64,000 bases of DNA from an uncultured Planctomycetia bacterium (GCA_964437495.1 CAYTGV010000003.1:17910-81909); one strand, 5' to 3'. Positions 26,326-45,580 are shown, numbered from the stretch's first letter. The notes: generated by a model from the sequence alone, not told the origin. Translations and numbers: made by a program.

Positions 26326-26361
26326 ATGAATAGAAAATTCTACATTAAAACCTTCGGCTGA
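26326..26361 (+). pseudogene. miaB: host-derived 5' remnant of miaB (MNRKFYIKTFG then TGA) left at the left junction of the integrated element
   Basis: atgaatagaaaattctacattaaaaccttcggcTGA; FYIKTFG identical to residues 16-22 of the intact MiaB at 45508; TTCGG core 26353-26357. Confidence 0.65.
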
Positions 26362-26692
26362 CCCTTGGATTGCGCTCTACAAAGTTCTCAAACCATTCCT
26401 TTTAACTATTTTCCATCCTGAATTGACTTAATAATGCACCGCCCCGCCTTCGGCGGGGCTACTTGGGCATTGTTTAACCGTTCGCCTCAGCTAGGGCTTC
26501 GGCTCTCTGCGCACTCGCTAGGCCGCTCGCTTCGTGCTCATGCGTTACTACGATCCGGCTTTGGTCTGCCTCACTTCGCCAGAAATGGCTTCGTTTGGCA
26601 TCCCAGCGTCCTCTCCCGAGCAAAACCTCATAATTTAATGCTTATTTCTTTTTTTGGCGGCGGCGAAATATTTATTTAAAAAGGTGTGTTTT
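26362..26692 (+). repeat. GC-rich structured repeat 'a' (copy 1, element left end), about 330 bp, multiple UUCG-type hairpins
   Basis: About 90% identical to reverse complement of 36627-36966; GC content far above flanking DNA; e.g. ccgccccgccTTCGgcggggc hairpin. Confidence 0.7.
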
Positions 26693-26737
26693 GCTCGGTC
26701 GAGTCCGCGCGTCGCTTCGCGCCGCCAAGCCGAATCT

Positions 26738-26852
26738 GTCTTGCTGTCGTAGTGCTGTAATACCCCACCCACCCGGCAGTCTTTGTGCTCGGGCTCAACC
26801 ACTTCGTGTTTTCGCTTACCTGCGCTCAAAGCCAGCTTCCCCTTAAAAGGAA
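26738..26852 (+). repeat. repeat 'b' (copy 1) containing ccccacccacccg ... cctgcgctcaaagcc, followed by promoter of first island operon
   Basis: Direct-orientation similarity to 37143-37318. Confidence 0.5.
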
Positions 26853-27060
26853 GAGGAGACCTGTATCAAATATTCATCAACACTTCTGTCTTTTTTGCAA
26901 AAAGCCAGAACAGTCCGCAACGCCAAAAGACATCCGCCTTAGGCGGAAGACATTTGCCCTTCGGGTTCGCGTTGCTTTGATGAATATTTGAAAAGTTTTC
27001 AATACAAAGCTTTTGCTAATATATATTGCACACACGGTGCAATATGTGTATAATATTAAC

Positions 27061-28068
27061 ATGACTAATGTTTCTATTCCAGAAGCTTCATATTCCAATC
27101 TATTAAAAAAATTAAAAAAAGAAATTGCTGAAGGCCTAGTCCGTGCCCAGAGAGCTTATGACAGGGAAAAAGTCATAGCTTACTGGAAAATAGGTCAATC
27201 AATCTCCAAACATCTTTCAAAAAATAAGGATAGAGCAGATTATGGCAAGAAACTATATAAAAGACTTTCTGATGATCTTTCTATCGGGGAACGCCTACTT
27301 TATCAAATATCTCAATTTTACAATACATATCCTCATTTTAAACCTTCCCAAAACTTAAAATGGTCCCATTATCGTTTATTGACCTCAGTTAAAGACGAAG
27401 GGAAGAGAACTCTTCTTGAAACTAAAGTCTCAAATGATAACTGGTCAAAGAGAGCATTAGAAGATTTTATTAGAGAAGACAAAGAGCAAGATGTTGAACC
27501 TACAAAGCCTTCCATAAAAAGAACGAAAAAGCTATCTTGTTCTAAAGGCAGGTTGTATACATACAAGATATTCAAAGATGACTATGCGGATAATATGCTT
27601 ATAGATTGCGGGTTTAATACTTATAGAGAATCCGAAATGGCAAGTTTTAAGGGGGACTTTGTAGAAACCGTTAAAGCAGAAGATAGCTACAAACTGCTTA
27701 AGTCAACCGCTACTCGTAAACATCTATATACTTACAAGGCATATATTAAAAAGATAATTGACGGTGATACTATCTGGGTAAATATAGATTGTGGTTTTAA
27801 GACATGGGTTAAGCAAAAAATCCGGTTGCGTGGCATAGATACTCCCGAGATTGAGACGAAAAAGGGGATAGAATCGTTTAAGTTTGTTTGCAAGGTACTT
27901 AAAAACCTACCATTCATTATAATCAAAAGTCATGGCAGAGATAAATACGACCGTTATCTTATGGATCTTTATTACACAAAAGGAGAAGAAAACCCTTTAG
28001 TTGTCCTAGAGAAGGGGGCATTTCTTAATCAAGTGCTTTTGGATAAGAATTTAGCAATACGGGTATAA
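27061..28068 (+). CDS. nuclease: DUF1016 (YhcG) N-terminal domain fused to staphylococcal-nuclease (SNase/thermonuclease) domain
   Basis: N-terminal LKWSHYRLLTSV motif of DUF1016_N. C-terminal IIDGDTIWVN...IRLRGIDTPEIETKKG matches the SNase motif (DGDT ... R.GID.PE). A degenerate first SNase-like repeat precedes it. TATAAT 27046-27051 only 9 nt before ATG 27061 suggests a leaderless transcript. Confidence 0.6.
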   Translation: MTNVSIPEASYSNLLKKLKKEIAEGLVRAQRAYDREKVIAYWKIGQSISKHLSKNKDRADYGKKLYKRLSDDLSIGERLLYQISQFYNTYPHFKPSQNLKWSHYRLLTSVKDEGKRTLLETKVSNDNWSKRALEDFIREDKEQDVEPTKPSIKRTKKLSCSKGRLYTYKIFKDDYADNMLIDCGFNTYRESEMASFKGDFVETVKAEDSYKLLKSTATRKHLYTYKAYIKKIIDGDTIWVNIDCGFKTWVKQKIRLRGIDTPEIETKKGIESFKFVCKVLKNLPFIIIKSHGRDKYDRYLMDLYYTKGEENPLVVLEKGAFLNQVLLDKNLAIRV

Positions 28069-28134
28069 ATAATACAGATGTAGGGGGAGGGGCTTGTCTC
28101 CGCCCGCTAATCATAGACAGTTGTGTTAATAAAT

Positions 28135-28156
28135 AGTACGTAGTATACTACGTACT
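28135..28156. promoter_or_regulatory. 22-bp perfect palindrome AGTACGTAGTATACTACGTACT immediately upstream of the AbrB-like gene (candidate operator)
   Basis: Read directly; 12 bp upstream of RBS taggagg for ATG 28169. Confidence 0.5.
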
Positions 28157-28168
28157 ATAGGAGGCTTA

Positions 28169-28351
28169 ATGATGGCTAGATATAAGAAGGAAGATGGAGT
28201 GGTTAGGAAATTAACCAAAACAGGAAAATACACTTATTACGTAACAATTCCAAGAGAATATATTGCAACACTTGGATGGAGAAAAAAGCAAAAAGTATCA
28301 GTTCGGCTTTCAGGAAAGAAGATTATTATTGAGGATTGGAAGACACAATAA
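28169..28351 (+). CDS. AbrB/MazE/SpoVT-like swapped-hairpin DNA-binding protein (antitoxin-like), 60 aa
   Basis: YYVTIPREYIATLGWRKKQKVSV matches SpoVT/AbrB domain consensus (tv.IPkeir..lgi..gd.v). Confidence 0.5.
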   Translation: MMARYKKEDGVVRKLTKTGKYTYYVTIPREYIATLGWRKKQKVSVRLSGKKIIIEDWKTQ

Positions 28352-28464
28352 GCATTATTGTTGTATTTTTTGTACTTTGATTGCTCTAACTATATGAATG
28401 TTGTATAATAGATACTAACATTGTATATTTCAATAATAAAGACAATAATATTATTGAGGGAGAT

Positions 28465-28911
28465 ATGAGTATAATTGACTTAACACAACAAGAAGCAGAT
28501 GCATTAATTGCTATGGATAAAGTACGTATTAGCGATGAGCGGTATCTATTTCCTCAGCTTGGTGGTTCCTTAAGAATTCCTTTAAAATCGAAGGATGCAC
28601 GAGAGGAATTTATGCTTGATATTACCAGAGGTCAGATTAACCTTAAGAAAAATACTTTTCAAAATAGAGCACGTAAAGCAATAGTGCTAGTTAGGGTTGA
28701 TATTGATGGCCCCCCTCATTGTAATCCAGATGATAAAATAGTAGATTGCCCACATATTCATACTTATCGTGAAGGTTTTGGTGATAAATGGGCAGTCTCT
28801 TTGCCGGATTTTTTCTCGAAACCCGATGATAGTTGGACGACACTCGAAGAATTCATGAAGTATTGTAATATTTCTGATAAGCCGAATATTACTAGGGAAT
28901 TATTTATATGA
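28465..28911 (+). CDS. hypothetical protein (148 aa) with [10 protein letters not shown] motif, translationally coupled to next gene
   Basis: ORF; stop overlaps next start (ATGA). Confidence 0.4.
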
Positions 28912-29675
28912 AGGATGAAATTCAAAAATTATTAGATAATTATAATTTGTGGTTAAAAGATAGAACCGTTCTGAAACAAATTACTGATAAATGGGTTGAA
29001 ATTACTACGCCTCATCTTGATCGGCATAATGATTGTTTGCAGATTTATGTATTCAAACAAAATAATGGCTATTTAATAACAGATGATTCATATATAATTA
29101 CTGACTTAGCAAATTCAGGGTGTACTATAGATACTCCTAAGCGTCAAGAGCTTCTTAGGATGACTTTAGCTGGTTTTGGAGTGCAATTAGATGGTGATCG
29201 TTTAGTTGTTCATGCTACTTTTGAAAATTTTTCGCAAAAAAAACATAATATTATTCAGGCAATGGTGGCAGTTAATGATCTTTTTTATTTGGCGTCTCCT
29301 TATGTGTCTAGTATTTTTTATGAAGATGTTGCCAAATGGCTTGATCTTTCCGACATACGTTATACCCCTAAAGTTAAATTTACTGGTAAAACAGGGTATG
29401 ATTATATGTTTGATTTTGTAGTGCCTAAATCTAGGCAAGCACCTGAACGGATTTTACAGACAGTTAATAATCCTAAAAAAGATTCTGCTGAAGCCCTGCT
29501 TTATAGATGGATGGATACAAAGGAAACAAGACCACCAGATTCTAGATTGTATGCCTTTTTAAATGATTCCAATTTTCGTGTTTCGCAATCTGTTGTTGAT
29601 GCATTGGCAAGTTATGATGCGGTTCCTATTTTGTGGTCAAACCGTGAAGGGACACGCAAAGCATTATGTTCTTAG
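28908..29675 (+). CDS. DUF1828/DUF1829-type protein (255 aa)
   Basis: N-terminal LWLKD ... [20 protein letters not shown] resembles DUF1828 N-terminal region, C-terminal half DUF1829-like; assignment from memory of family consensus. Confidence 0.45.
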
Positions 29676-29809
29676 ATTTGTTATGATTAAAGGTCACATA
29701 TAATATCTAAAAAGAGGTCTCTTACTGCAATAAGTTGTTTTTTGAGTAGAATACGTTTACTTAATAGGTGAAAATCTAAAACTTAAATATTTTCGAAAAA
29801 GGGTATCAA

Positions 29810-32800
29810 ATGAGCTCTGATTTAACCTTTATAACCAATGAAAAGAATAAGCACTTACTTGACCGCTTTAAAGTTCTTATTAAAGACACACGTTTCTTTG
29901 ATGTTCTTGTCGGGTATTTTTATACAAGTGGTTTTCATGCCTTATATAAATCATTAGAATCTACTGAGAAGATCAGAATTCTTATTGGTATCAGCACTAA
30001 TAAAGAGACTGTTACTCTTTTTAATAAAGCAAATTATAATCTCCAGCCAACCTTTCAGTTTTCTCATGCAGAAGTTAAAAAGGAATTTGAAAATCATGTA
30101 AGTGAAGAGATGGAGAATTCGGAAGATAATCCCCATGTCGAAGAAGGGGTTTTAAAGTTCATTGAATGGCTAAAAATTGGAAAGCTTGAGATCAAAGCTT
30201 ATCCAACTCAAAATATACATGCAAAACTCTACATTATGACCTTTACTGAAGATGATCGCGATAAAGGGAGGGTGATAACAGGTTCAAGTAATTTTACTGA
30301 AGCTGGATTAAGGGATAACTTAGAATTTAATGTTGAGTTAAAAAATAGATCGGACTACGATTTTTCCTTGCAGAAATTCAATGAGCTTTGGGAAGATGCA
30401 GTAGATGTTAAAGATAAGTATATTGAGTCTATTCAGACAAAAACGTGGTTGAATGATACTATTACGCCTTATGAGTTGTATTTAAAGTTTTTATATGAAT
30501 ATTTTAAAGAAGATTTGAGTCAACCTGAAGAGGTTTTTTACCGTTATGTCCCTTCAGAATTCATGAAGCTTGAATATCAAGAACAAGCAGTATTGAATGC
30601 AAAGCGAATTCTTGATGAGTATGGCGGGGTTTTTATTTCTGATGTTGTTGGTTTAGGAAAAACTTATGTTTCTGCCTTACTTGCGCAACAATTAGATGGG
30701 CGGACATTAGTTATTGCTCCCCCGGTTCTTTTAGATAAGTGTAATCCGGGGTCGTGGCCAAATGTATTTTCTGATTTTAAAGTGGCTGCTGATTTCGAAT
30801 CATTAGGCAAGTTAGATAGCTTAATTAAAAGAGGAGCAGATAAATATAAAAATATCTTTATTGATGAAGCTCATCGTTTTAGAACAGAAACTAATATGAC
30901 CTATGAAAAGCTTGCTCAAATTTGCAGGGGCAAACGAATAATTTTAGTTACAGCAACTCCTTACAATAACTCTCCTAAAGATATTTTAAGTCAGATTAAG
31001 CTCTTTCAAAAAGGCAGGAATAGCACTATTCCTAATCTACCTGATTTGGAAAGGTTTTTTGGGGCTTTAGGGAAAAGAATAAAGAAGCTTGATAGACAGA
31101 AAGATTATAAAGAATATATAAGTATTGTTAGAAATAATGCGAAAGAAATCAGAGAAAAAGTTTTAAAATATTTAATGGTTCGGCGCACTCGCAATGAAAT
31201 CGTCAACCATTTTTCAAGGGATTTAAAAGAGCAAAATTTGAAGTTTCCAGATGTAGCTGATCCTGAAGCTATATTCTACGAATTAAATGATGAGGAAGAT
31301 AAGGTTTTTACTCAGACTATAGAGCTTATTGCTAAGAAGTTTAAATATTCTCGTTACACCCCATTATTATATTATCAAGGGAAAATTACCCAACCAGAAG
31401 AGTTAGCTCAAAGAAATATGGGCAAGTTCATGAAAATTCTTTTGATTAAAAGACTAGAGAGTAGCTTTTTTGCTTTTAGAAATTCTATAAGTAGATTTAT
31501 TGTTTCGTATACCCACTTTTTGAATGAACTAGATAAAGGCAATGTTTATGTCAGTAAAAAGCATATGAGTAAATTATTTGACTTGCTAGAAAATGACGAT
31601 GAAGAAGCAATTCAACGACTAATAGAAGAAGATAAAGCTAAAAAATATGATGCAAAAGATTTCAAAAAAGATTTTAAAAATGACTTAAAACATGATTTAG
31701 GAATATTATTAACCATTAAGAGGTTATGGGAAACCGTAAAAAGAGACCCTAAGCTTTTAGCGGCAAAACAGAAGTTGTCATCGAGGAAAATACTTAAAGA
31801 GCAAAAACTGATTATTTTTACTGAATCAAAAGAAACTGCTGATTATTTGTCAGGACATCTCAACGAATTATATAAAGATAAAGTTTTATGTTTTTCAGGC
31901 AGTTCTAGCGCTAGGATAAGAGAAAGGGTAATTGAAAATTTTGATGCAAAGGCTAGATATCCGAAGGATGATTATAGAATTCTTGTAAGTACAGAGGTTC
32001 TTTCAGAAGGTGTTAATTTGCATAGGTCCAATGTAGTTATTAATTACGACATTCCTTGGAATCCAACCCGTTTAATGCAAAGGGTAGGGCGAATTAATCG
32101 TGTCGATACAAAATTTAATAAGATTCATAGTTTTAATTTTTTTCCGACTAAGCAGTCAAATGATCAGATTAAACTGAAAGAGGCTGCTGAAGGTAAAATC
32201 CATGCTTTTATTTCAATGCTTGGAGCAGATGCTCGGTTGCTCACTGAAGGTGAGCCTATTGAGTCATTCGAATTGTTTAATAAATTACTTTCTAAAAAGA
32301 CGATTACTGGGGAAGATGAGCATGAGGAAAGCGAGTTGAAATATTTACAAGTTATAAAGGAGATTCGAGATAAAAACATAGACTTATTTGAAAAAGTAAA
32401 ACGATTGCCAAAAAAATCTAGGACAGCAAGGATTTTAAAAGATGCAAAAAATGCCCTTCTTACTTATTTTCGAAAGGGCAAATTACATAAGTTTTATATG
32501 GTAAGAATGAAGACTGAACCCGAGGAATTAGATTTTATTTCTGCAGCAAAGCGGTTGGAGGCTAGCCAGAGTGAGAAACGAGAAAAAATAAGTAAAGATT
32601 TATATGAGTTGTTAGAGAAAAATAAGCAAGCTTTTCATCATGCCACATTTGAAGAAGTGCCTGAGATTAAAGGGAAAGGTGGTCGTGATACTGTAACTTT
32701 AGTGTTAAGGATTCTTAAAACGAATGATATCAGGCGTTATAAGGGGTATACAGAGGATGATGAGCTCTATATTAAAAAAGTAATCAAAGAGGTAGAAGAA

Positions 32801-33001
32801 GGCGGTCTACCCAGACAAACTTCAAAGACTTTATTGAAAGAACTTCAAAAAGAATTGAAAAAAGGAGTTAATCCATTAAAGATATTAGCAATTTTAAAGA
32901 TGAATATTCCTGCTGAATTTTTACAAGAAGCTGCTTTTCAAACTGCTGCTCAAATTTTCGGCCCCAGAGAAGTGATTTTATCAGAATATTTTAAAGGTTG
33001 A
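29810..33001 (+). CDS. PLD-family (HKD) nuclease domain fused to SNF2/DEAD-like helicase (1063 aa)
   Basis: N-terminal NIHAKLYIMTF ... ITGSSNFTEAG is the HxK(x)4D(x)6GSxN PLD motif. Helicase domain shows Walker A GLGKTYVSALLA, DEAH-like FIDEAHRF, motif VI MQRVGRINR, and C-terminal STEVLSEGVNLHRSNVVINYDIPWNP. Confidence 0.8.
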   Translation: MSSDLTFITNEKNKHLLDRFKVLIKDTRFFDVLVGYFYTSGFHALYKSLESTEKIRILIGISTNKETVTLFNKANYNLQPTFQFSHAEVKKEFENHVSEEMENSEDNPHVEEGVLKFIEWLKIGKLEIKAYPTQNIHAKLYIMTFTEDDRDKGRVITGSSNFTEAGLRDNLEFNVELKNRSDYDFSLQKFNELWEDAVDVKDKYIESIQTKTWLNDTITPYELYLKFLYEYFKEDLSQPEEVFYRYVPSEFMKLEYQEQAVLNAKRILDEYGGVFISDVVGLGKTYVSALLAQQLDGRTLVIAPPVLLDKCNPGSWPNVFSDFKVAADFESLGKLDSLIKRGADKYKNIFIDEAHRFRTETNMTYEKLAQICRGKRIILVTATPYNNSPKDILSQIKLFQKGRNSTIPNLPDLERFFGALGKRIKKLDRQKDYKEYISIVRNNAKEIREKVLKYLMVRRTRNEIVNHFSRDLKEQNLKFPDVADPEAIFYELNDEEDKVFTQTIELIAKKFKYSRYTPLLYYQGKITQPEELAQRNMGKFMKILLIKRLESSFFAFRNSISRFIVSYTHFLNELDKGNVYVSKKHMSKLFDLLENDDEEAIQRLIEEDKAKKYDAKDFKKDFKNDLKHDLGILLTIKRLWETVKRDPKLLAAKQKLSSRKILKEQKLIIFTESKETADYLSGHLNELYKDKVLCFSGSSSARIRERVIENFDAKARYPKDDYRILVSTEVLSEGVNLHRSNVVINYDIPWNPTRLMQRVGRINRVDTKFNKIHSFNFFPTKQSNDQIKLKEAAEGKIHAFISMLGADARLLTEGEPIESFELFNKLLSKKTITGEDEHEESELKYLQVIKEIRDKNIDLFEKVKRLPKKSRTARILKDAKNALLTYFRKGKLHKFYMVRMKTEPEELDFISAAKRLEASQSEKREKISKDLYELLEKNKQAFHHATFEEVPEIKGKGGRDTVTLVLRILKTNDIRRYKGYTEDDELYIKKVIKEVEEGGLPRQTSKTLLKELQKELKKGVNPLKILAILKMNIPAEFLQEAAFQTAAQIFGPREVILSEYFKG

Positions 33002-33005
33002 CCTA

Positions 33006-36000
33006 ATGGAAAGAAAGCAAGCAAATAAGATAGTCAAAGATACTTTTGAAAATCCCTTCAATAAAGAACAATTCGTCTATTTTATCAAAAACCTTCTTAA
33101 TCATATTGAAGAAACTCCTGGTACGCTTTATCGTGGTAATTATATTCCTGATGCTTATGCTCCTTATGTAAATACATTAGAGCGTTTAGGTAAATATTTA
33201 GATGCTGATGAACGGTCAATAGATGTATTGATAGTTAATCTTAAAAAAAATACTTCTCTAGAGCGTGCACGTACTATGCAGCGTAATTTTATTGCTTGGT
33301 ATTTGAATGGTAGTCGAGGAGGGGTATTAAAAGATGCTGCATTGGTTGCTTTTGTTTCTCCAGCACAAGAAGATTGGAGATTTTCTCTAGTAAAAATGGA
33401 GTATAGTTTAGATACCAGCGGAGAAAAGGTTAAAACAAAAAAAGAGTTAACCCCTGCCAGAAGATTTTCTTTCTTAGTTGGAAAAAATGAAAATACGCAT
33501 ACTGCCCAAAGTTACTTATCCCCTATAATAGCTGATGAGAGTAAAGATTTAAATTTAAGTAATATAGAGAATGCCTTCAGTATTGAAAAAGTAACAAAAG
33601 AATTCTTTGAAAAATATAGAGATTTATTTCTTAAATTGACAGACTCTCTAAATGAGATAGTTAAAAAAGATCAAAAAGTTAGGGCTGATTTTAAAAACAG
33701 AGGAGTAGAAACTGTAAATTTTACCAAAAAGCTTTTAGGGCAGGTAGTATTTCTTTATTTTTTGCAAAAGAAAGGTTGGTTTGGAGTAGGAAGAGATGAA
33801 GAGTGGGGAACAGGACCTAAGAATTTTTTAAGGCTTCTTTTTGAGAAAAAGATTGTTGATTATAATAATTTTTTCAATGATATTTTGGAACCATTGTTCT
33901 ATGAGGCATTAGCTACTGAAAGAGAAGATAGTTTTTATAGCAGATTTAACTGTAAAATTCCATTTTTAAATGGCGGATTATTTGATCCTATTAATAATTA
34001 CGATTGGGTTCATACCGATATTGTTTTATTAAATGATATTTTCTCAAATAAGCATAAGACAAAAGAAGGTGATGAAGGGTCAGGAATTTTAGATGTTTTT
34101 GATAGATATAATTTTACTGTTAAGGAAGATGAGCCGCTTGAAAAAGAAGTAGCCGTAGACCCTGAAATGCTTGGTAAGGTTTTTGAGAATTTATTGGAAG
34201 TAAAAGATAGAAAGTCCAAAGGTACTTATTATACTCCCAGAGAGATTGTGCACTATATGTGCCAACAAAGTTTATGCAATTATTTGGCAGAAGAGCTTAA
34301 GGAAAAAATCACAAAAGAAGAGATTGATACGCTTATAAAATACGGAGAAAGTGCTATAGAACATGATAGTAGAGTTGAAACCTATGGAAAAGAAACAAAA
34401 ACTTATTCTTTTAAACTTTCTGAGAATATTAGAAAGAATGCATCTTTAATTGATGAAAAACTTTCGGATATTCGTGTATGTGATCCTGCTGTTGGTTCTG
34501 GAGCTTTTCTCGTTGGAATGATGAACGAAATTGTTCGTGTCCGCAATGCTTTAACTACCTATTTAAGAGATAAAAAGCAAAGAACCTTTTATGATTTTAA
34601 ACGGAATGCTATCCATTATTCTCTTTATGGGGTAGATATGGATCCAGGTGCTACTGAGATAGCTAAACTTAGACTTTGGTTGTCACTTGTTGTAGATGAA
34701 GAAGATATTAAACAAATTAAACCATTGCCTAATTTGGACTATAAGATTATGCAGGGCAATAGTCTAATTGAGGATTTAGTTATTAACAATATTGTTATTA
34801 AGTTTAATCTAGATGATGTAGTTAAAGTTGATCGTCGTACCAAGAAAACAAAAGAGTTATTTAAAAAAGAAGTGCAGCATACACTTTTTAAAGATAAAAG
34901 TGAGGATATTTTTGAAGAATTAAAGAAGTTGCATTCTGTTTATTTTGAAGAGAATAATAAAAACAAGAGGTTAATTTTAAAAGAAAAGATTGTTAGTACA
35001 GAGCAGTTATTTATAACAGCAAAATGCGAAGAAGAAATAGAGCGGTTAAATGTATTTAAGAATAATTGTCGAGATAGAAAAAGAATAAGCAATGTCGAAA
35101 GTCAAATAAAAACCATTCATTCTACGCTTCGTAAATTAAAAAAAGAAGGAACAAAACCTTTTTTCTTATGGAAGCTTAATTTTTCTGAAGTTTTTATTGA
35201 TAAAGGTGGGTTTGATGTGATTGTGGGGAATCCTCCTTATGTTCAGCTTCAAAAAACTGGTGGAGAATTAGCTAATGTTTATGAGCAGTGCGATTATGTT
35301 ACTTTTTCACGGACTGGTGACATTTATACATTATTTTATGAAAAAGCTCATCGCTTGTTGCGGACTCATGGGATAGCTTGTTTGATAACTTCTAATAAAT
35401 GGATGCGGGCTGGATATGGCAAATTGATTCGTAGGTACTTTATAGATGTTGTTTCTCTTCTTATTCTTATTGATTTTGGTGATGCACCATTATTCAAGAA
35501 TGCAACAACTTATACCAATATACTTCTTTTTAAGAATATTCCACCTAGTGATTGCAGATGTTCTGTTTATGACTTAAGTAAAGAGAAAGGCGTAGAGGGT
35601 AGATTATTATATTACCTCAGGAACTTGCAAGGAAAATATATTTCCAATTTTACAGAGGTAAGTTATTTGATTGTTAATAAATATGAATTCCAAATAAAGC
35701 AGAAGGTTGAAGCTAAAGGCATACCATTAAAAAATTGGGATATTGATATTTATCGGGGTATTTTGACTGGATTCAATGAAGCTTTTATTATTAACACCGA
35801 GATAAAAGAACGTTTATGCCGGGAAGATCCTAATTGTTTAAAAATTATTAAACCTATATTGAGAGGGCGGGATGTTAAAAGGTATAAAGCGGAATTTGCT
35901 GGATTGTGGTTGATTAATACCCACAATGGTTATGATAATGAGCCTCCAGTTGATATTAATGATTATCCAGTAATTAAAGATTATTTGAAGGAGATTGAAA

Positions 36001-36530: not shown

Positions 36531-36626
36531 TATTCCCGCCCTTTGCAATCGCAGTCGTCCGGCTTCATCCCGATAATTCGGTATTCCGCAACGTACTTTG
36601 TGCGCTTGCCCCCCCCCTAAAGGAAA

Positions 36627-37141: not shown

Positions 37142-37142
37142 C

Positions 37143-37318
37143 GTCTTGCTCTCGCTAATGTCTCGCAATCCGTCACACATCTCCCTAGATGTGCGTTAAA
37201 AAGCAGAAAAAAAGAAAAACCCCCACCCACCCGAAAATTGTCTCTGTGCTCGGACTTCTACGCCTCTGGCGTATTCGTTCCCTGCGCTCAGAGCCAATTT
37301 GTTCCCCCTAAAAATGGA
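37143..37318 (+). repeat. repeat 'b' (copy 2), followed by TTGACA...TAAAGT promoter of second island operon
   Basis: Similarity to 26738-26852 (gtcttgctNtcg ... ccccacccacccg ... cctgcgctcagagcc). Confidence 0.5.
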
Positions 37319-37319
37319 G

Positions 37320-37348
37320 CTTGACAAAATATGACAAAATGTGTAAAG
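37320..37348 (+). promoter_or_regulatory. sigma70-like promoter TTGACA-N17-TAAAGT, about 10 nt before ATG 37359 (near-leaderless)
   Basis: ttgacaaaatatgacaaaatgtgtaaagt read directly. Confidence 0.45.
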
Positions 37349-37358
37349 TGGGTTCACT

Positions 37359-37541
37359 ATGGAAAAACGATATAATTTAAGCAAAGCGGCAAAAGAATTA
37401 GGCATCACTCGCCAAGGTCTTTATTACTGGATAAAGAAAGGGTGGGTTACGCCTAAACGTGATTTTAAGAATCATCCTGTTTTTACGGATGCTGATTTGA
37501 AAAAGATTAAAGGGTGGATGAATAAATTAAAGGATTCCTGA
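37359..37541 (+). CDS. excisionase/AlpA-like HTH DNA-binding protein (candidate recombination directionality factor or regulator), 60 aa
   Basis: LSKAAKELGITRQGLYYWIKKGWV helix-turn-helix of excisionase-type; first gene of second island operon. Confidence 0.5.
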   Translation: MEKRYNLSKAAKELGITRQGLYYWIKKGWVTPKRDFKNHPVFTDADLKKIKGWMNKLKDS

Positions 37542-37543
37542 TT

Positions 37544-39148
37544 ATGAATATTGAAATCTTTATTGGGTTCTTAGGGCTTTTGATTACGATGTATGCTATT
37601 GCCCCAGAGGTGGTCAAGGCTAGGGTTCATGCTTTTATTAATCCATTGCTGTTTAAAATCGCGATACCTTTATATATAGTTGTATCTTTGTGCGTTCTTT
37701 ATTTTGAGCATTATTACTTAGATGATGTTTTAATGTGTGAAGTTTTATTTTGGGCAAAATATCTTTCTTATTGTGGGATATTCTTGTTAATATGGTTTAT
37801 CTATACATCTTTGAGAGATAGAAAGCTGGGGAAATCAAATATTGAAAGGTTTTATAAATTCCTAAAAGTTCTTTTGTCAAAGCAGCAGTTTTCAATATTA
37901 ATTGATATATTACATGGTAGTCTTAAATACATACTTCCATTATATAATGTTCAAGCAAAACCTGAAAAGTGTAAGAAATTAAAAAATACCATTATGGTTG
38001 GCGGCAAGGTTATTCCTTTTCCAGTTTTTCCATCTGATTCTTTTGAGACAGAGATTTCAAAAAAGATATTTAGAGACGTAATTTTTAACGAATCGTTCAT
38101 AAGGGCAAATATTCATTATGGGAAAAATTTTTCTATTGATTTTATAAGTGGTTGTAGAAAAAATAAAATACACATAAGTGATTATTCGGACTTGTTTCTT
38201 TATGAGCTTTTAAAAAACAAAGACTCTTTCCTCTATCAAGAATTAAAAGAAACGCTTACAGTCTATTCTCCAAGTAACGATGAATTTGATAGGTTTCCAT
38301 TTTTACATGTATTATTTGAGGATATTAAATACTTTAATGAACAGGGATTTTATAGAGGAATAGGGGAGTATGTCATTGAATTTGTTGATAGAAATATTGA
38401 CAGTAATAATGAGCGATATAGCCGTAGTACTAAATATTATTGGGATCAACGTGAGCGAGATGGTAAATACAAATGTCCTGTTTATATGGGACTTAGTTAT
38501 TTTACATATATGGTGAACAAGGCTATACGTGAGAATATTCAAAGCCATATGTGGCTTTTGTATGTTCATTATTGGGTTAAAGCGATATGTAAGAAAATGG
38601 TTTACTATGAAGATGAATGGCAGGGGGGCGGTGAGTTTCCTACAATTTACTGTTATTTGCTTTATGAGCTGCTTGGTATCCATGGCAATTGGGTTAAGCA
38701 TATATATGAAGTTTCAAGCGAGGAACAACATGGTAGTTCTTTTCAGCAGGACGATAAATCAATTGATATAAGTGAGGAAAGGGAGTTAATTTTAGAATGG
38801 ATACTTAAGGATATGCTTTATTGTGCTGATAGTATCGCGCAATGTGAAGCCATCCCCTATGATAAGCGTGTGTACTTACTTAAAACGTTTATGGGTGTAA
38901 ATATTGGGATAAAAAGCAACTTTTCTCAATACGGGAAAGCTTGTATTGCAAAAGCCACCAATTTAAATAAAGTTATTAGTATATATATAGATGAGTTTGA
39001 AAAAAGAATACGTAACAAGAATTACTCAAAAGCTTTTAACGAAGATTTAAAAAATGCGTGTCAAGATGCATTAGAATCAATGGATACAATTCCTTTAGAC
39101 AGTAATATTGTTAGATTTTGGAAGGGCTGGCTCAGTGGATTACAGTAA
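37544..39148 (+). CDS. membrane-anchored protein of unknown function (534 aa; 3 N-terminal TM helices + large cytoplasmic domain)
   Basis: Hydrophobic segments at residues about 5-20, 40-55, 75-90; no recognisable catalytic motif; start 3 nt after HTH gene stop. Confidence 0.4.
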   Translation: MNIEIFIGFLGLLITMYAIAPEVVKARVHAFINPLLFKIAIPLYIVVSLCVLYFEHYYLDDVLMCEVLFWAKYLSYCGIFLLIWFIYTSLRDRKLGKSNIERFYKFLKVLLSKQQFSILIDILHGSLKYILPLYNVQAKPEKCKKLKNTIMVGGKVIPFPVFPSDSFETEISKKIFRDVIFNESFIRANIHYGKNFSIDFISGCRKNKIHISDYSDLFLYELLKNKDSFLYQELKETLTVYSPSNDEFDRFPFLHVLFEDIKYFNEQGFYRGIGEYVIEFVDRNIDSNNERYSRSTKYYWDQRERDGKYKCPVYMGLSYFTYMVNKAIRENIQSHMWLLYVHYWVKAICKKMVYYEDEWQGGGEFPTIYCYLLYELLGIHGNWVKHIYEVSSEEQHGSSFQQDDKSIDISEERELILEWILKDMLYCADSIAQCEAIPYDKRVYLLKTFMGVNIGIKSNFSQYGKACIAKATNLNKVISIYIDEFEKRIRNKNYSKAFNEDLKNACQDALESMDTIPLDSNIVRFWKGWLSGLQ

Positions 39149-39267
39149 ATTATGAAAGTATCAATTTGTATAAGAGTTTCAACTGGAGACCAAGTTAAAG
39201 AGAGGTTACTCTAAGAAATCTAAATAGGTTGTTTTGAGGGCGTTGTTATTATTAAGATTTAAAATTT

Positions 39268-40149
39268 ATGAGAAATATAAATAGATATTTTTGTCGAGCA
39301 TTAGATTCCAATAACACATTTTCGCCAAGTGTTCATTGGGAGCATTGTCTTTTGTTAGAAAAGGCAATGTTGGATATATTACAATATATTCCCATACATG
39401 ATGGGATGCCGGATGAGAATTGGAAAGTTAGCAGTCCAAAATTAATAGATATATTTGTCAAGTCATGCTTCCTTTTTGAAGCGGCATTTAAAGGTATTTC
39501 AAATGAACCAACGGATCGTATTGTCAACTATCTTAAACAAAATGCATATGTATGGAGTGAATATTTTCTTGATGGAAAAAATCGCAACGGCAAATGTAAA
39601 GAATTAGATATTTGCGATTTTTTAACCTTTTATGACGCGTATTGTTCCTTGAACTTCTTAGAAGCAAGAATCAGATGTTCTCAAAATATTAGTGACGTTT
39701 GGGTAAATAAAATGACTGTAATTCGTCCATTTTTTAATATGAAACTCGAAAATAATGTAGTAATTAAATCCCCTGATTGGTGGAAAAAATACACACAAAT
39801 TAAACATAATTTTTATTCCTATCCACAAGAAATTAATTTGGAAGCTACAATTGAAGCTTTAGCTGCATTGATATCTTTCACCGCAGTTGTTCCTCAGATG
39901 CGTCGATTACTCTGCGATCATGGGTACATACAGGATAATTTTAAAAAACCTTTTGATATTGAAAAAATCGGACGAAAAATTAATGATAAATTTGTTAAGG
40001 ACCCTTGGGTTAACCATAAAAAAATGTTCTTCGAGGAATATGATGATATTGATACGATGCCCGCTATTGCATGTGTATCAGATTTATTTATAGTACCTTT
40101 TGTAGGCGATTATAGAAAAGCTAGATTATGGTCGGGGATAGGAAAATAA
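39268..40149 (+). CDS. hypothetical protein (293 aa), no recognised domain
   Basis: ORF in operon context; Cys/His-rich, W-rich C-terminal region. Confidence 0.35.
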   Translation: MRNINRYFCRALDSNNTFSPSVHWEHCLLLEKAMLDILQYIPIHDGMPDENWKVSSPKLIDIFVKSCFLFEAAFKGISNEPTDRIVNYLKQNAYVWSEYFLDGKNRNGKCKELDICDFLTFYDAYCSLNFLEARIRCSQNISDVWVNKMTVIRPFFNMKLENNVVIKSPDWWKKYTQIKHNFYSYPQEINLEATIEALAALISFTAVVPQMRRLLCDHGYIQDNFKKPFDIEKIGRKINDKFVKDPWVNHKKMFFEEYDDIDTMPAIACVSDLFIVPFVGDYRKARLWSGIGK

Positions 40150-40154
40150 GAGTT

Positions 40155-40246
40155 GATAAAACCAGAAAGAGATTATAGTACTTTTCCGGTGTTTACAAAT
40201 GCTGATTTAAAGAAAATTAAAAGGTGGAAAGATAAAATTAAATAAA
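40155..40246 (+). pseudogene. 3'-end remnant of a second copy of the excisionase-like HTH gene (ELIKPERDYSTFPVFTNADLKKIKRWKDKIK then stop)
   Basis: Translation aligns with C-terminus of 37359 gene (GWVTPKRDFKNHPVFTDADLKKIKGWMNKLK); no start codon or HTH portion. Confidence 0.5.
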
Positions 40247-40268
40247 GAGGTGTTAAGGACTTAATAAT

Positions 40269-41060
40269 ATGGCACATTTAACTACTAATGAAAAACAAAT
40301 TCTTGAGAAGCTCTTTCAACTGGGAGGGGGCTATGTTTTGAATTTTTCTGATAGAACCATGGGGGAGTTTTTTAAAGACGATGTTGGTATTGATATATAC
40401 GATGAAAAGTATAATTATGCCAGTGGTTCAAAGGCTAATCGTATGCGTGGATTTTGGCGTGAGGCAAATAATGCAATAGTTAGCGCCTCGATTATTAAAT
40501 TAGTTGAGTATCTTAAAAACCAGATGCTTTTAGGCGAATTGAAAGAGAAAGAATTTCCTGAAAAATTATTACAGCGTGCTTTACAAATAGCGAGTAAATT
40601 AGCCGCAAATGATAACAAGAATGTGGTTTTTACAGTAAAGCCAATCAAAACACTTGTAGCCCAACTTCAAGAAGCTAAATTAAAAGATGGTAAAATTACT
40701 ATAACTTTACACAAGAAAGTTTTTGACCACGTTCAAAGCCTTCTGTCTGATGGACACTACTTTAATGCAGTTGAAGAAGCATATAAAATCGTTAGAAATA
40801 AATTGCGCGATGTTAGCGGTAGCGAGAGGGCAACGGATGCTTTTAAAGAGGCTAACTATGAGCGTATTTTTGGTCATAATCCGGCAAATCAAGCGGAAAA
40901 AGATTTTTATGAAGGAGTAAAATTTTTACATATGGCTATACAGTTTTTAAGGAATGAAAAAGCTCATACACCAGCATATGATTTAGATAAAAATTTGGCA
41001 ATTCATTATATAGCACTAGCTAGCTTGGCGTATGATTTGGTTGATAGGCAAAAGAAGTAA
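40269..41060 (+). CDS. HEPN-domain protein of the TIGR02391-like family (263 aa)
   Basis: C-terminal FLRNEKAHTP (R-x4-H HEPN motif) within GHYFNAVEEAYKIVRNKLRD ... context typical of TIGR02391/Abi-associated HEPN. Confidence 0.5.
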   Translation: MAHLTTNEKQILEKLFQLGGGYVLNFSDRTMGEFFKDDVGIDIYDEKYNYASGSKANRMRGFWREANNAIVSASIIKLVEYLKNQMLLGELKEKEFPEKLLQRALQIASKLAANDNKNVVFTVKPIKTLVAQLQEAKLKDGKITITLHKKVFDHVQSLLSDGHYFNAVEEAYKIVRNKLRDVSGSERATDAFKEANYERIFGHNPANQAEKDFYEGVKFLHMAIQFLRNEKAHTPAYDLDKNLAIHYIALASLAYDLVDRQKK

Positions 41061-41144
41061 ATATCTATTGCAATTATCCTGTATTTACAGAACTAGATTT
41101 TTTAAAAATTAAAATTTGGGAAAAGAAACTAAAAGAGGTGTGAT

Positions 41145-43916
41145 ATGAATTGTTTGACAGGTTCATTGTGGCGTAAATGGGATTTGCATGTGCATGCTCC
41201 GGGAACAAAACTTAATGATGGATATAAGGTTGAAGATGGAAAAAATGTCTGGGATGATTTCTGCAAAATTGTAGAAGAATCTGATGTTGAGGTTTTTGCT
41301 ATTACGGATTATTTTTCAACTGATGTATATAAAACTTTTAAAATTGAGTATCAAAAAAGATATCCAGAATCAAGAAAAAAGTTCTTTTTGAACATTGAAC
41401 TTAAACTTAATGAGTCAGTAAATAGTAAATCAGAAGAAATTAATTTACATTTAATCTTTAATCCATTATCCGCTGATAAGGCTGACGATTTCTTGAGTAA
41501 TTTGAAGCTTGTAAAAACAGGGAAAGATGGAATCTCAATAAAGTGTTCAGACTTAAATTCAGTTGATGACTATAAATCGGCAACTGTTACAAGAGATTTT
41601 ATCGAATTTGCATTTCAGGAGACCTTTGGAAAGAAAGCTATTCGGCAAGATCATTTTCTTATTTTTACAGCTGCTAATAATGAGGGGATTCGTCCTGAAA
41701 AAGGTAAAAAGAGAAAAGAAATTATAAGTGATGAAGTTGATAAATTTAGCGATGTTTTTTTGGGAGGGGCGCAAAATGTAGTGTATTTTTTGGGAGAGGA
41801 TAGGCTTGAAGATAATGAACAGAAAATAATCAAAAAACCTGTTGTCTCAGGTAGTGATTGTCATTCCTTTCAAGATTTAAATGCATTTCTTGGGAAGAGG
41901 GTTATTAAAAATATTGATGGGAAAGAAATAATTATAAAAGATATCACTTGGATAAAGGCAAATCCAACCTTTGAAGGTTTAAAACAGATAATTTATGAGC
42001 CAGAGCCTGGAGAACGGGTTTATATCGGCACACTCGAACCTGATAGGAAAAATGATTTTCAAATAATACGAAAAATAAGGTTTGAAAATTCAACTGATTT
42101 TCCTACTGAAATTTATTTCAACAATAACCTTTGCTCTATTATTGGCAGTAGATCTACTGGTAAATCGGCGTTACTTGCATATATAGCGCATTCTATAGAT
42201 AAAGATTTAGCTGAAATGCTGAGGCCTGGCCCAGGAGATGGGGATGATTACCATTGGGATAAAATTGATATTGATTGTTTTGTGGAGTGGGGGAATGGAA
42301 TTTCTTCTAATGATGCTAAGTGAAAGGTAGTTTATATACCGCAAAATTATCTACTTGATAAAAGTAAAGATTCAGAAGAGATAAAGAATAAGATTGAACC
42401 GGTATTGTTTAAAAAATTTACTGAGTTCAAACTGCGATATGAGCAGGCGAAAAAACAGATAGCTGATTGTAATGCTAATATTTCTGATTATGTGAATACT
42501 TGGATTAAATTAGCAGATGCAATTTGTTCGTTTGCAAAAAGTCTAAAAGACTTAGGGGATAAAGAAGGAATTAAGAAAGAAAATAAAAATACTGAAATAA
42601 AAATAGAAGAGCTTAAAAAAAAGTATCAGTTAAGTGAAAGTGATGTTAAAAAATATAAAGAGATAAGTTCTGACTTATCTATGTATGAAGTAAATATCAA
42701 AGAAAGGGAAAAAGAGCTTGCTCAAATTGGTAGTGAAGGGGAAATAGATCAATTTTTTTCATCATTAAACTGGACTTTTGTTCCAAATATCGAAAGTTTG
42801 CCACAGAAGTTGCAAGATGTAATTAAAAAAGAAATGGAAGATGTTGACAACGGAATTCTAAAAAAAGCAAATGAACTAGTTGTTAAATATAAAATTAAGC
42901 TAGATAAAGATATAGATGATTCTGAAAAAGCAATCATCGGAATTAAAAGTGTTAATAATATCTTAATTGAAAAATATCAGAAAAATATTGAGCTCAATGC
43001 GCTTATCAAGAAAATAGAGGGGCTTAATAAGAACTTGCAAACTATAGAATCATTAGAGAAAGAGATAAATATAAAAAGAGTGTTATTGGGTGAATGTCAA
43101 AAAAACATTGATATAGAAATAAGCAAAAGAGAGGATCAATTTAAACAGCTTAAGGAAGATCTTGAAGCTAAAGATCAAAAAGGAGCCGATATAGAATTTA
43201 ATATTGAATATGGATTAAATCCTGGAGATGTGGAAAGGGTTGCAAAAAAAATAAATTTAAAGGAAAGATCCGATTTCGTTGAAAAAAACGAATTAAAAGT
43301 AGATGACATAAGAAAAAAATCAAACGAATTTTTAAAAGCAATTTATTTTGGAAAGCAAAAAATAAATTCAGGTAATATAAAGAAAGATGTTATAGAAGAT
43401 ACGCTAACGTTGACCGAGAATATTTTATTTGCTGCTAAAATGGAAGGGGATCGGATAGGAGGCTTTCTTGAAACTACCATGACTCCTGGCAGGCGAGCTC
43501 TTTTTCTTTTAAGATTGATTCTGGACGAATCAGATGATGCTTGGCCTATTCTCATTGATCAGCCAGAAGATAATTTAGATAGTAGATCTATTGCTAAGGA
43601 AATAGTTCCATTTTTTAAAGGCAGGAAAAAAGAAAGACAAATAATTATGGCTAGTCATAATGCAAATCTCGCAATTGGAGCAGATTCAGAACAAATCATT
43701 GTAGCAAATAGACATGGACAAGATAAGCCAAATTTAGATGGAAAGCAGTTTAATTATTTAACAGGTGGTATCGAAAACACAAAAGAGAAGTCTGAAAAAA
43801 TCAAGGACACGCTAGGATCTCAAGGTATTCGAGAACATGCATGTGAAATATTAGATGGTGGAAAAGAGGCTTTTGAATACAGAAGAAACAAGTATAATTT
43901 TAAAAAGAGATATTGA
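41145..43916 (+). pseudogene. PHP-domain + SMC/ABC-type ATPase (Ppl/PplA-like single-gene defence protein) interrupted by one in-frame TGA (42321-42323)
   Basis: N-terminal WDLHVHAPGT...DG PHP motif. Walker A GSRSTGKSALLAYI. After the stop comes a long coiled-coil, then Walker B/D-loop ILIDQPEDNLD and H-loop MASHNANL. ORFs 41145-42323 and 42405-43916 are in the same frame with no other stop between them. Confidence 0.6.
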
Positions 43917-43918
43917 AA

Positions 43919-45580
43919 ATGCAAGTTGCTTTATATATTAGAGTTTCTACCGAAGATCAAGCAAAAGAGGGATATTCTCTTGAAGTCCAAAGAGAATATC
44001 TTGAATCTTTTGCTAAGCGCGAATGCTTTGAAGTTTTTAAAATCTATTGTGATGAGGGGATAAGTGCCTACTCTACTAGACGAGAAGCGTTACAGCAATT
44101 AATAAAGGATTCTAAGGATAAAAAGTTTGATCTTGTGCTTGTTTATAAAATAGACCGCTTTAGTCGTAAGCTAAAAGACCTTTTAAATTTGGTTGATGAG
44201 TTGTCTTCTTATGGTGTTGGCTTTAAGTCTGCAACTGAGCCTTTCGATAGCACAACATCAGCAGGAAAGTTGATGTTTCAGCAATTAGGTTCCTTTGCAG
44301 AGTTTGAGCGAAATCGTATTTCTGAGAGAGTATTCCCTGGAATGGTTAAAGGTGTTCAACAAGGCAATTGGCAGGGAGCGAGGTTTTCACCGTTTGGCTA
44401 TACTTACAATAAAGAAAAAAAGCTATTAGAAGTTGAGCCTCGGGAAGCGGATATTGTTAAGTTGATTTATACAATGTATCTAACTGGCAAAAGCACGCAT
44501 GAGATTGCTGAGTATTTGAATAAGAAAAAATATCAAACTAGGACAGGAAAACAATTTTATACTAAATTTATAGGTGATATTTTAAAGAATAGAATTTATA
44601 CAGGGAAGATCGTTTGGAATAAAAAGCATTATGATAAAAATCAAAAAACAAAGAAGCATTATAAATATATTAAAAATGATGCTTCAAAAATTATAATTGC
44701 TCAAGGCAAGCATGCTCCAATAATTGATGAGCAGGATTTTGAAGCAGTACAGAAGTTATTAGCTGAAAAGAAAAGAACATGGCGGCCAAGAGTAAAAAAT
44801 AAAGAGTATCTTTTAACTGGTTTGCTTACTTGTACGAAATGTAATCATAAATACAATGGAGTATCATCAATATCAAATCATAGAACTAATAAAAAGAAAC
44901 GATGGTATCGTTGCTCAGGGCCTTATGCTAATCATATTAGATGTACAAATGGATCAGTCAAGGCAGAGGATATTGAACCGGAAGTTACAAAGATTGTGGC
45001 TCAGTTGATTCAAAATGATAGGTTAAAACAGAGCCGATGGATGAGCGGGACTTTGCCAAAAAGCGCAAATTTTCCCAATTTTGGCAAAAATACCAAAATT
45101 GACGCATCTAAACTTAAAAATAAGCTTGAAGATAACCAAAGAAAGCAGTCAAAACTAACAGACGCTTATTTGGAAAATTTGCTTGGAGAAGATGTGTTTC
45201 GTGGTAAGATAGAACAACTTCGCAAGGAAGAGGATGAACTAAAGATAATCCTTGCAGGATATGAACTTAGGGAGATTGAAAGCGAAAGATCAGAAGGGTA
45301 TATTAACAGAGTAAAAGACTTTTTGGATGGGCATGACGAGGCTAAGTCAGCAATAGATTTTGCTACCAAGAAAGCGATGTGCGGACTGCTTTTTAAAAAC
45401 ATCAAAATCGCCCCCGCCATCGGCGGCGCTCGACCCCATAAAAGAATTTCTTTTTCTCTTTTCCCCCCTTTTAATTTTTTGTTTTCAGAAACAGAAAGAA
45501 AATCACAATGTCAACAAAATCAACGGCTTACAAAAATTCGCCGAAAAGTTTCTACATTAAGACATTCGGTTGCCAGATGA
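43919..45580 (+). CDS. large serine recombinase (integrase) of the integrated element
   Basis: N-terminal resolvase catalytic domain with catalytic-Ser context YIRVSTEDQ...DRFSR. Followed by recombinase domain and Cys-rich zinc-ribbon LTCTKCNHKYNG...RCSGP and coiled-coil. The ORF 3' end runs into the att/miaB-promoter repeat and overlaps miaB start. Confidence 0.85.
   Translation: MQVALYIRVSTEDQAKEGYSLEVQREYLESFAKRECFEVFKIYCDEGISAYSTRREALQQLIKDSKDKKFDLVLVYKIDRFSRKLKDLLNLVDELSSYGVGFKSATEPFDSTTSAGKLMFQQLGSFAEFERNRISERVFPGMVKGVQQGNWQGARFSPFGYTYNKEKKLLEVEPREADIVKLIYTMYLTGKSTHEIAEYLNKKKYQTRTGKQFYTKFIGDILKNRIYTGKIVWNKKHYDKNQKTKKHYKYIKNDASKIIIAQGKHAPIIDEQDFEAVQKLLAEKKRTWRPRVKNKEYLLTGLLTCTKCNHKYNGVSSISNHRTNKKKRWYRCSGPYANHIRCTNGSVKAEDIEPEVTKIVAQLIQNDRLKQSRWMSGTLPKSANFPNFGKNTKIDASKLKNKLEDNQRKQSKLTDAYLENLLGEDVFRGKIEQLRKEEDELKIILAGYELREIESERSEGYINRVKDFLDGHDEAKSAIDFATKKAMCGLLFKNIKIAPAIGGARPHKRISFSLFPPFNFLFSETERKSQCQQNQRLTKIRRKVSTLRHSVAR
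45395..45569 (+). repeat. element right end 'r': replacement promoter + first 20 codons for miaB, ending at attR core TTCGG
   Basis: Near-identical inverted copy at 36967-37141. Confidence 0.7.

Follow-up and report, generated by a model that had tools for sequence, protein, structure and literature searches.

The DNA analysed here, called the window, is a stretch of 64,000 nucleotides (nt) from an uncultured Planctomycetia bacterium (GCA_964437495.1 CAYTGV010000003.1:17910-81909). Within it, the start of the tRNA-modification gene miaB is occupied by an element of about 19.2 kb (26361-45572) that carries a gene for a large serine recombinase (LSR). The disrupted native 5′ end of miaB can be read directly at 26327-26362 on the plus strand (ATG AAT AGA AAA TTC TAC ATT AAA ACC TTC GGC TGA) and encodes MNRKFYIKTFG, with the TGA contributed by the island. 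At the other end, a new miaB open reading frame (ORF) starts ATG..MSTKSTAYKNSPKSFYIKTFGCQMN at 45508 and extends to a repaired MiaB of 433 amino acids (aa) with UPF0004 and Radical_SAM domains (45508-46809, plus strand), followed by a SPOR/TPR gene and miaA. There is no target duplication at the insertion. An earlier note on this DNA had described a serine-recombinase island of about 19 kb at the miaB 5′ end that supplies a substitute N-terminus; both junctions, including the truncated original start with its TGA, and the 433-aa MiaB agree with that description. FYIKTFG takes up residues 15-21 of the new MiaB, however, and not MiaB residues 16-22 as the note had it.

The 23-nt pattern TTCTACATTAARACMTTCGGYTG has three matches in the window, where shuffled sequences predict 0.00. 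Two matches are on the plus strand (26338-26360 and 45550-45572); the third, on the minus strand at 36964-36986, had escaped the earlier note. From left to right the layout is a host arm joined to P′1, segment X, an inverted site made of P′2 and P2, segment Y, and P3 joined to miaB. Site 1 (attL, 26338-26360, plus strand), placed by the pattern and a three-site alignment, brings together the host left arm and the P′ arm of the island. P′ arm copy 1 (beta1, 26361-26692, plus strand) is the GC-rich, hairpin-rich left terminal arm and flanks segment X together with the inverted P′ arm copy 2 (beta2, 36629-36963, minus strand); the left end (26333-26692) and the inverted copy at 36629-36986 share 92.3% identity over 365 nt. 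P arm copy 2 (alpha2, 36964-37141, minus strand), which includes the core of site 2 (36964-36986), is 178 nt long and 100% complementary to P arm copy 1 (alpha3, P3 in the layout above; 45395-45572, plus strand), where the core of site 3 (attR) lies at 45550-45572. Repeat search, three-way alignment and blastn all identify the GC-rich patch in the middle as a complete attP on the minus strand, with alpha2 and beta2 as its two arms.

Segment X thus consists of cargo between inverted GC-rich P′ arms of about 360 nt, and segment Y is a module of a helix-turn-helix (HTH) gene, cargo and the LSR gene between perfect 178-nt inverted P arms. The earlier note had taken the island as one simple unit; the full inverted attP in the middle (36629-37141) splits it into two segments, each flanked by inverted repeats. 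GC content is about 50% only at 26362-27000 and 36500-37400, with cargo at 29-35% and flanks at 36-41%. The GC-rich foreign DNA previously reported from 26362 onwards is therefore a property of the arms and not of the island as a whole.

With a recombinase at one end, defined junctions, atypical composition and cargo that varies among relatives, the element has the features of an integrative island. It does not qualify as a prophage, as no capsid, tail, terminase or lysis genes were among the Pfam matches of ORFs of at least 140 aa, and a search of IMG/VR gave a single weak fragment match only. We consider it probable that this is an integrative defence island placed by the LSR within the first dozen codons of miaB and built on a recurrent two-segment design with an inverted attP; the bacterium that carries it probably belongs to Omnitrophota.

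Attachment sites and the recombinase gene

The core common to all three sites is TTCGGYTG. The earlier note had recognized a shared TTCGG core and set the crossover within it; the core stands, in this fuller form, but the exchange probably falls on the TG just 3′ of TTCGGY. The base after TTCGG is equal in the middle and miaB-proximal sites within 12 genomes and unequal between genomes. In the window it is C in the host-derived left site and T in both island P arms. Because the variable base matches within genomes and differs between them, it appears to travel with the left arm, and strand exchange is most likely at the following TG (26359-26360, 36964-36965 and 45571-45572). This TG is the centre of a GGN-TG-ACC dyad and is non-palindromic, as expected of the crossover dinucleotide of a serine integrase. 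A palindromic CG crossover permitting integration in either orientation was considered and dropped, since the dyad is centred on TG and the base after TTCGG goes with the left arm.

attB and attP are almost the same in their left half-sites (TTCTACATTAAAACCTTCGG and TTCTACATTAAGACATTCGG, respectively). The classic LSR trait of an attP and an attB distinct in both half-sites is therefore absent here, suggesting the host left arm and the P arm may be equivalent as half-sites. As the host left arm is similar to the P arm, both encoding FYIKTFG, attL resembles attP and attR resembles attB.

The LSR gene (43913-45580, plus strand, 555 codons) codes for the Pfam domains Resolvase (PF00239, E=1.6e-39), Recombinase (PF07508, E=8e-25) and Zn_ribbon_recom (PF13408, E=4e-11). 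Comparison with characterized large serine integrases, which the earlier note had proposed, supports the assignment: residues 42-498 align to the SPbeta integrase (E=9e-21), and the catalytic domain to that of TP901-1 (E=7e-24). R10-V11-S12-T13 is invariant in 44 homologs, consistent with a resolvase-type catalytic domain. In an AlphaFold model, long helices occupy residues 398-457 and terminal strands are placed at 494-499 and 512-516, with moderate confidence. Taken together, Pfam, the SPbeta alignment and the model give the recombinase domain, zinc beta-ribbon and coiled coil of an LSR.

No stop codon is met in the LSR frame before the TGA in CAGATGA of miaB, so the ORF traverses the P arm and the crossover. 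The enzyme has more than 900 homologs, and among the best 120 most are about 553 aa long with the same tail. The arm at 45395-45572 contains LSR codons 495-553 and, from 45508 in a different frame, the substitute codons 1-21 of miaB. In 37 distinct arms, the first 114 nt vary with the codon-position pattern of the LSR (0.086/0.070/0.154), while the pattern in the last 61 nt follows the miaB frame. The first part of the P arm is predicted to encode the terminal beta-hairpin of the LSR. The right arm had been described as a new promoter behind the recombinase gene; it is instead 3′ coding sequence of that gene, overlapped out of frame by the miaB start. About 33 nt at 45385-45417 (CTGCTTTTTAAAAACATCAAAATCGCCCC) are invariant in 37 distinct LSR sequences, third codon positions included, and coincide with the inner boundary of the inverted repeat. 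On these sequence grounds, the run is likely a signal at the DNA or RNA level.

Read in the LSR frame, every P′-type arm specifies a conserved peptide (DPWxxLYKxxKPFxF, GRWPxYSKxMxxLAEALVE or DLIYRFYN). Past the site, the LSR C-terminus has about 25 conserved residues in the attP state versus 3 residues when integrated (..SAVR). Such a site-dependent switch of tails may tune LSR activity.

Other explanations for features of the arms were set aside. A GC hairpin in the arm does not account for the repeat boundary, as subfamilies without the hairpin have the same boundary. A -1 frameshift signal at TTTAAAAAC together with the GC hairpin was dropped because conservation is lacking in the -1 product. 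The minus strand of the middle site has a 96-aa ORF (36890-37180) whose product would comprise 13 new residues, the C-terminal 59 residues of the LSR and the attP-state tail, with one beta-hairpin; ORFs like it with short basic N-termini are at about 75% of middle sites. We rejected this ORF as a free-standing regulator given an in-frame start in only about 75% of loci and an N-terminus that is not conserved; it is probably not a real gene.

Related loci and the inverted site

Related loci were gathered from GTDB species genomes (25, mostly Candidatus Omnitrophota metagenome-assembled genomes), from JGI metagenomes (80) and through additional look-ups, and the architecture of the family was surveyed in 112 loci. 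The layout of the window recurs in about 100 public loci, mostly from Omnitrophota. Their host MiaB is 37-70% identical to that of the window, their LSR 52-88% and their P arm 75-94%. An HTH gene precedes the LSR gene in nearly all of them and overlaps its start in minimal modules; cargo-free minimal modules of about 2.1 kb were found in four loci (L026, L077, L079 and L083). More distant LSRs (40-47% identical) also lie beside miaB and lack the inverted site. Relatives of the recombinase share this position in many distantly related hosts, and their cargo varies widely, in keeping with the mobile element that the earlier note had proposed.

Not all partner arms are of the long P′ type. A second family of about 65 nt (TGGCCGATGG..TTATAGTA..) encodes the conserved LSR tail GRWPxYSKxMxxLAEALVE and is present in L037 (11640-13330), L010, L034, L040, L073, L023 and L075 (6034). 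In L037, two genes, a GIY-YIG gene and what appears to be a native, uninterrupted miaB come after this arm; the array there seems to lie outside miaB.

Empty targets were found in related genomes. L114 and L115 encode an uninterrupted miaB in the same order of miaB, SPOR/TPR gene and miaA. The site in L115 reads TTCTATATTAAAACTTTCGGCTGTCAGATGAAC / ATGAAAAACACCTTCTATATTAAAACTTTCGGCTGTCAGATGAAC and equals the reconstructed attB at about 30 of 33 positions. The uninterrupted miaB with the predicted attB that the earlier note had asked for therefore exists as a near match in relatives, though not in a conspecific; the exact reconstructed attB had 0 matches in metagenome contigs. Short native N-termini of the MNRKFYIKTFG type (MKKFYIKTYGCQMN, METFYIKTFGCQMN and MKNTFYIKTFGCQMN) are also present in uninterrupted Omnitrophota MiaB. 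Among the 120 nearest MiaB homologs, about a quarter have a P-arm N-terminus or are called from an internal Met. The latter is a signature of an upstream LSR, since the overlap of the LSR ORF with the miaB start (45508-45580) leads to such calls. Public MiaB calls of this kind (MNDRDSE..), which lose the FYIKTFGCQ motif, include P0121, the database call for the window, and about 18 of the 120 nearest homologs. The exact MiaB protein of the window was not in the database.

The recombinase gene of Y lies between inverted sites, a geometry like that of Hin, and the LSR tail is set by the arm that follows the core. These features could point to a phase-variation switch, in which flipping Y alters the expression of miaB or the LSR, or the C-terminal isoform of the LSR, with mobility secondary or lost. 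Contigs of two loci (L081 and L088) show the flipped arrangement, with the HTH side joined to miaB, although ambiguous assembly may account for this, and three heptamer tracts lie within miaB. Both ends of Y bear the same outward miaB start, however, making a flip neutral for the MiaB protein. The orientations are also far from balanced: miaB adjoins the LSR side in 39 loci (P′-type arms do so in 25), as against the two with the HTH side in that position (in 27, the HTH side adjoins a P′ arm). With a family that is clearly mobile, given its many hosts, variable cargo and empty sites, we regard a switch as the primary function as rather unlikely.

Alternatively, the island could be one piece and its middle site a relic with no present function, such as the remains of an earlier recombinase gene in opposite orientation together with its attP. 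Consistent with this, alpha2 copies the 3′ end of the LSR gene without the gene body, and islands of this family do accumulate decayed modules, as in L061 and L024. L075 also manages without the inverted site. A relic would be expected to decay independently, yet in each genome the P arm of the inverted attP tracks the functional one. Identity between the inverted P arms of one genome is mostly 94-100% (85-91% in a few pairs), against a divergence of 6-25% between genomes. These arms always start at the invariant AAAAACATCAAAATCGC, LSR codon 494, and this sharp inner boundary is kept across LSRs 52-88% identical to that of the window. Arms alike within genomes, divergent between them and fixed in their boundary indicate concerted evolution of a functional feature. 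Ordinary accretion, moreover, cannot produce an inverted site from a non-palindromic TG. We find a relic distinctly improbable.

A chimeric contig join through the repeated arms, which would make the three-site layout unreal, is very improbable: repeats of 178-365 nt do break short-read assemblies of this locus in other samples, but the two P′ arms are distinguishable (8% of positions differ), independent assemblies match at 100% identity over the left junction with X (L004 and L005), Y (L116) and the LSR-miaB junction (L113 and L121), and long contigs of other species have the same layout (L001, L016, L020 and L078).

An integrative two-segment island with a functional inverted attP therefore remains our preferred reading, and we tentatively extend it to a mechanism. 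The element could be a self-contained LSR platform whose attP and attB differ in one half-site and which integrates, excises and inverts without a directionality factor. It would have a self-flipping Y that repairs miaB, a recombinase C-terminus rewritten according to state, and integron-like docking of trapped defence cassettes. The sites would differ essentially in their right halves, P′ arm versus miaB arm. Recombination of site 1 with site 3 by the LSR would excise a circle of X and Y carrying two inverted attP, and recombination of site 2 with site 3 would invert Y; the products of either would again be one attP-type and one attB-type site. As Y has the same outward miaB start at both ends, miaB would be whole in either orientation. 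The LSR would accept further elements at the miaB-proximal site, yielding arrays, and crossing the site would rewrite the LSR tail. Cassette exchange between resident and incoming elements was dropped from this scheme because it would require attP x attP recombination.

Insertion into miaB and restoration of the gene have good support. From the contigs at hand we infer inversion, excision and accretion at the miaB-proximal site. In the arrays of L061 and L024, a decayed HTH-LSR remnant, in which part of an HTH gene is fused to the tail of an LSR gene, and a direct attP come before X, the inverted attP, Y and miaB, in that order. This is the order expected if a new unit of X and Y inserts at the miaB-proximal site, which supports accretion. 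The same Y, at 100% identity, is joined to miaB in L020 and to P′2 and a reversed X in L095. Followed through L008, L112 and L033, the order Y, attP, X, inverted attP closes into a circle. In L033, the LSR end runs into P′ and the left end of X, and L008 has this element in integrated form; the repeated arms are identical there, which allows a short-read mis-join.

Several observations weigh against the island reading or parts of it. The isomer and circle contigs are short-read assemblies, in which identical arms (178 to about 550 nt) can be mis-walked. Such arms could yield alternative walks without rearrangement, and for this reason inversion and excision are put forward as candidate events. 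The Y of the window, in other samples, is a separate 8.5-kb contig that ends about 140 nt into both arms, and every contig obtained by looking up left-flank and Y proteins in other samples either bore the island or was broken at the repeats. Flipped junctions are rare, making up 2 of 29 on the HTH side. L075, a close relative with a broken LSR, has no inverted site, so the site is not indispensable. Half-site equivalence, read from the sequence, is confounded by coding constraint. Neither a conspecific empty site nor an unambiguous circle junction was found in the collections, where the next MiaB is only 70% identical. As for horizontal spread, no relaxase, coupling protein or type IV secretion genes are among the Pfam matches of island ORFs. 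For miaB transcription, a consensus scan gave no sigma-70-like promoter in the arm (45395-45564), and the candidate closest to the miaB start (45276-45304) lies within the LSR gene.

Cargo and other features of the island

The cargo of segment X (27013-36530, plus strand) begins with a DUF1016/SNase nuclease gene (27013-28068), followed by a MazE-like gene (28169-28351) and genes for DUF6978 (28465-28911) and DUF1828/1829 (28908-29675) proteins, all assigned by Pfam. A PLD-Snf2 helicase (29810-33001), which PADLOC assigns to HKD+Snf2 C3a139/DrmD-like, and a type IIG restriction-methylase of 1174 aa (33006-36530; PADLOC REase_MTase_IIG, E=0) complete the segment. PADLOC also reports PDC-S02 and PDC-M24A/B in X.

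Segment Y opens with a promoter-like site, TTGACA-17-TAAAGT (37321-37349, plus strand, consensus scan), and a gene for a 60-aa MerR/Fis-type HTH protein (37359-37541), the first gene of the recombinase module. Its cargo (37544-43916, plus strand) includes genes for a 534-aa membrane protein, a 293-aa protein and a HEPN/Ymh protein (40269-41060), a 392-aa ORF with no significant family match (41145-42323) and a 503-aa ATPase with a Ppl-like C-terminus (42405-43916; PADLOC Ppl, C-terminal ATPase region). The 392-aa and 503-aa neighbours may represent a Ppl-like gene that has been split, or a variant made of two genes. Directly upstream of the HEPN gene is a truncated second HTH copy (about 40150-40245, plus strand), which ends ..ELIKPERDYSTFPVFTNADLKKIKRWKDKIK before its stop. 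This suggests Y is a fusion of two modules or gained cargo via recombination within HTH genes.

Most cargo genes belong to known or candidate defence systems according to PADLOC, consistent with an anti-phage island. The defence content noted before is thereby upheld, with PDC-S02, PDC-M24A/B, HKD+Snf2, type IIG restriction-modification and Ppl from PADLOC and the HEPN gene in addition. In 40 other loci the interval between the HTH and LSR genes codes for GajA/AriA/PtuA-type ATPases, AbiL, RhuM/PDC-S05, YhcG/DUF1016, GmrSD, UvrD, DUF4238 and others.

A candidate native miaB promoter, TTGTCT-17-TAAAAT (26288-26316, plus strand), was found by consensus scan 11 nt 5′ of the broken start codon. 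It is now cut off from miaB and directed into the island. Between beta1 and the first cargo gene is a GC-rich leader (26693-27012, plus strand). By blastn against the window and the related loci, a GC-rich motif of about 90 nt (CCCACCCACCCG..GTCT.TGTGCTCGG..CCTGCGCTCA.AGCC) is present on the plus strand at 26763-26848 and 37221-37313, 5′ of the first gene in both segments, and also in L024, L039, L060, L020, L029 and other loci. It could be a leader or regulatory element.

The P′ arms are 330-360 nt long and GC-rich, and beta1 is conserved in 20 arms of other loci. A 17-bp hairpin within them shows compensatory changes at 9 of its 17 pairs; explicit pair counting found 87% of cells paired versus about 42% in slid controls. 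The hairpin is perfect and has an 8-nt loop, GGGTGGGG or CCCCCACC, whose orientation varies by element, for example L003 7537 (minus), L037 8401 (minus) and L042 2711 (plus). A loop in both orientations points to a DNA palindrome, as recombination across a palindrome would give. No Rfam family was found in the whole window at the gathering threshold, and none for the left arm at permissive E-values.

Four of the six period-7 tandem tracts of the 64-kb window lie within 1.1 kb of each other, in miaB and the SPOR/TPR gene. Three are in miaB (45744-45772, 45806-45831 and 46236-46266) and one is in the next gene (46825-46859). Their heptamer units (GACCACA x4, GACCATT x3.7, AATGACA x4.4 and TCTTGTG x5) encode low-complexity inserts, and gain or loss of a single unit would alter the reading frame in the manner of contingency loci.

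Two other loci had features of their own. L003 (1-7300) encodes a diversity-generating retroelement (RVT_1, bAvd and an Lcl_C target), an IS110 transposase, and HepT/MNT and RES toxin-antitoxin pairs. In L015 (64-579), the usual inverted attP is replaced by a 490-nt imperfect palindrome (83%) 5′ of the LSR gene, which is formed by two divergent HTH genes.

Relation to known systems

If these inferences hold, the family constitutes a major site-specific hotspot of anti-phage genes in the phylum Omnitrophota, nearly all knowledge of which comes from metagenome assemblies; roughly a quarter of the nearest miaB homologs appear to carry it. For an LSR, the new features would be an ORF that runs over its own site, a target-gene start out of frame in the tail and a conserved inverted attP pair otherwise only engineered. 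Should the enzyme indeed act on attL- and attR-like sites with no directionality factor, it would contrast usefully with the strictly one-way integrases of genome engineering, and the many natural att variants collected here make the directionality idea directly testable. There is also a practical warning, as the arms break short-read assemblies and lead to mis-calls of miaB from an internal Met.

The closest analogue in logic is the dusA-associated island (DAI). These islands and prophages are inserted at the 5′ end of a tRNA-modification gene, and the island end restores the coding sequence (Farrugia et al. 2015, PMC4482086). Like them, the miaB island replaces the 5′ end and keeps a tRNA-modification gene intact. 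The dusA islands use tyrosine integrases, are from Proteobacteria and have no described internal inverted site or integrase ORF running across the site, whereas the recombinase here is of the serine type, and the miaB island is thus not a member of the DAI family.

SCCmec and its Ccr recombinases are the closest in enzyme and in the building of arrays. SCCmec elements are LSR cassettes in rlmH (orfX) that do not inactivate the gene and form composite tandem arrays through recombination-competent junctions. They differ from the miaB island in 3′-end insertion, direct sites, resistance cargo and a distribution in Firmicutes, and they have no substitute N-terminus and no inverted attP.

Hin, Gin and Cin are small serine invertases that act on 26-bp sites with a Fis enhancer and are not integrative. 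Similar to Hin, the miaB island has its recombinase gene inside inverted sites and an outward 5′ region facing a neighbouring gene. Unlike these enzymes, it encodes a 555-aa LSR with recombinase and zinc-ribbon domains, which is not a small enhancer-dependent invertase, and it has 178-nt arms with the same outward gene start at both ends.

For Mx8 IntP/IntX and the SSV1-type integrases, attP lies inside the int gene and integration alters the C-terminus of the enzyme. The site of the miaB island is also within the recombinase ORF, but those enzymes are tyrosine recombinases and this one is an LSR. We know of no described LSR with an attachment site inside its own ORF, and none turned up in literature searches.

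A segment between two inverted attP is used for cassette exchange in engineered phiC31 landing pads (PMC4382291; 10.1101/2020.08.13.249656). Those pads are artificial, while the pair in the miaB island occurs naturally, as part of a mobile island, with one attB-like site opposite it. Literature searches turned up neither LSR islands that target miaB nor pairs of inverted attP in nature; the family is widespread and apparently undescribed. An LSR genomic island is a known kind of element; this one is set apart by its unusual, conserved division into two segments and by a recombinase gene whose reading frame extends across its attachment site.

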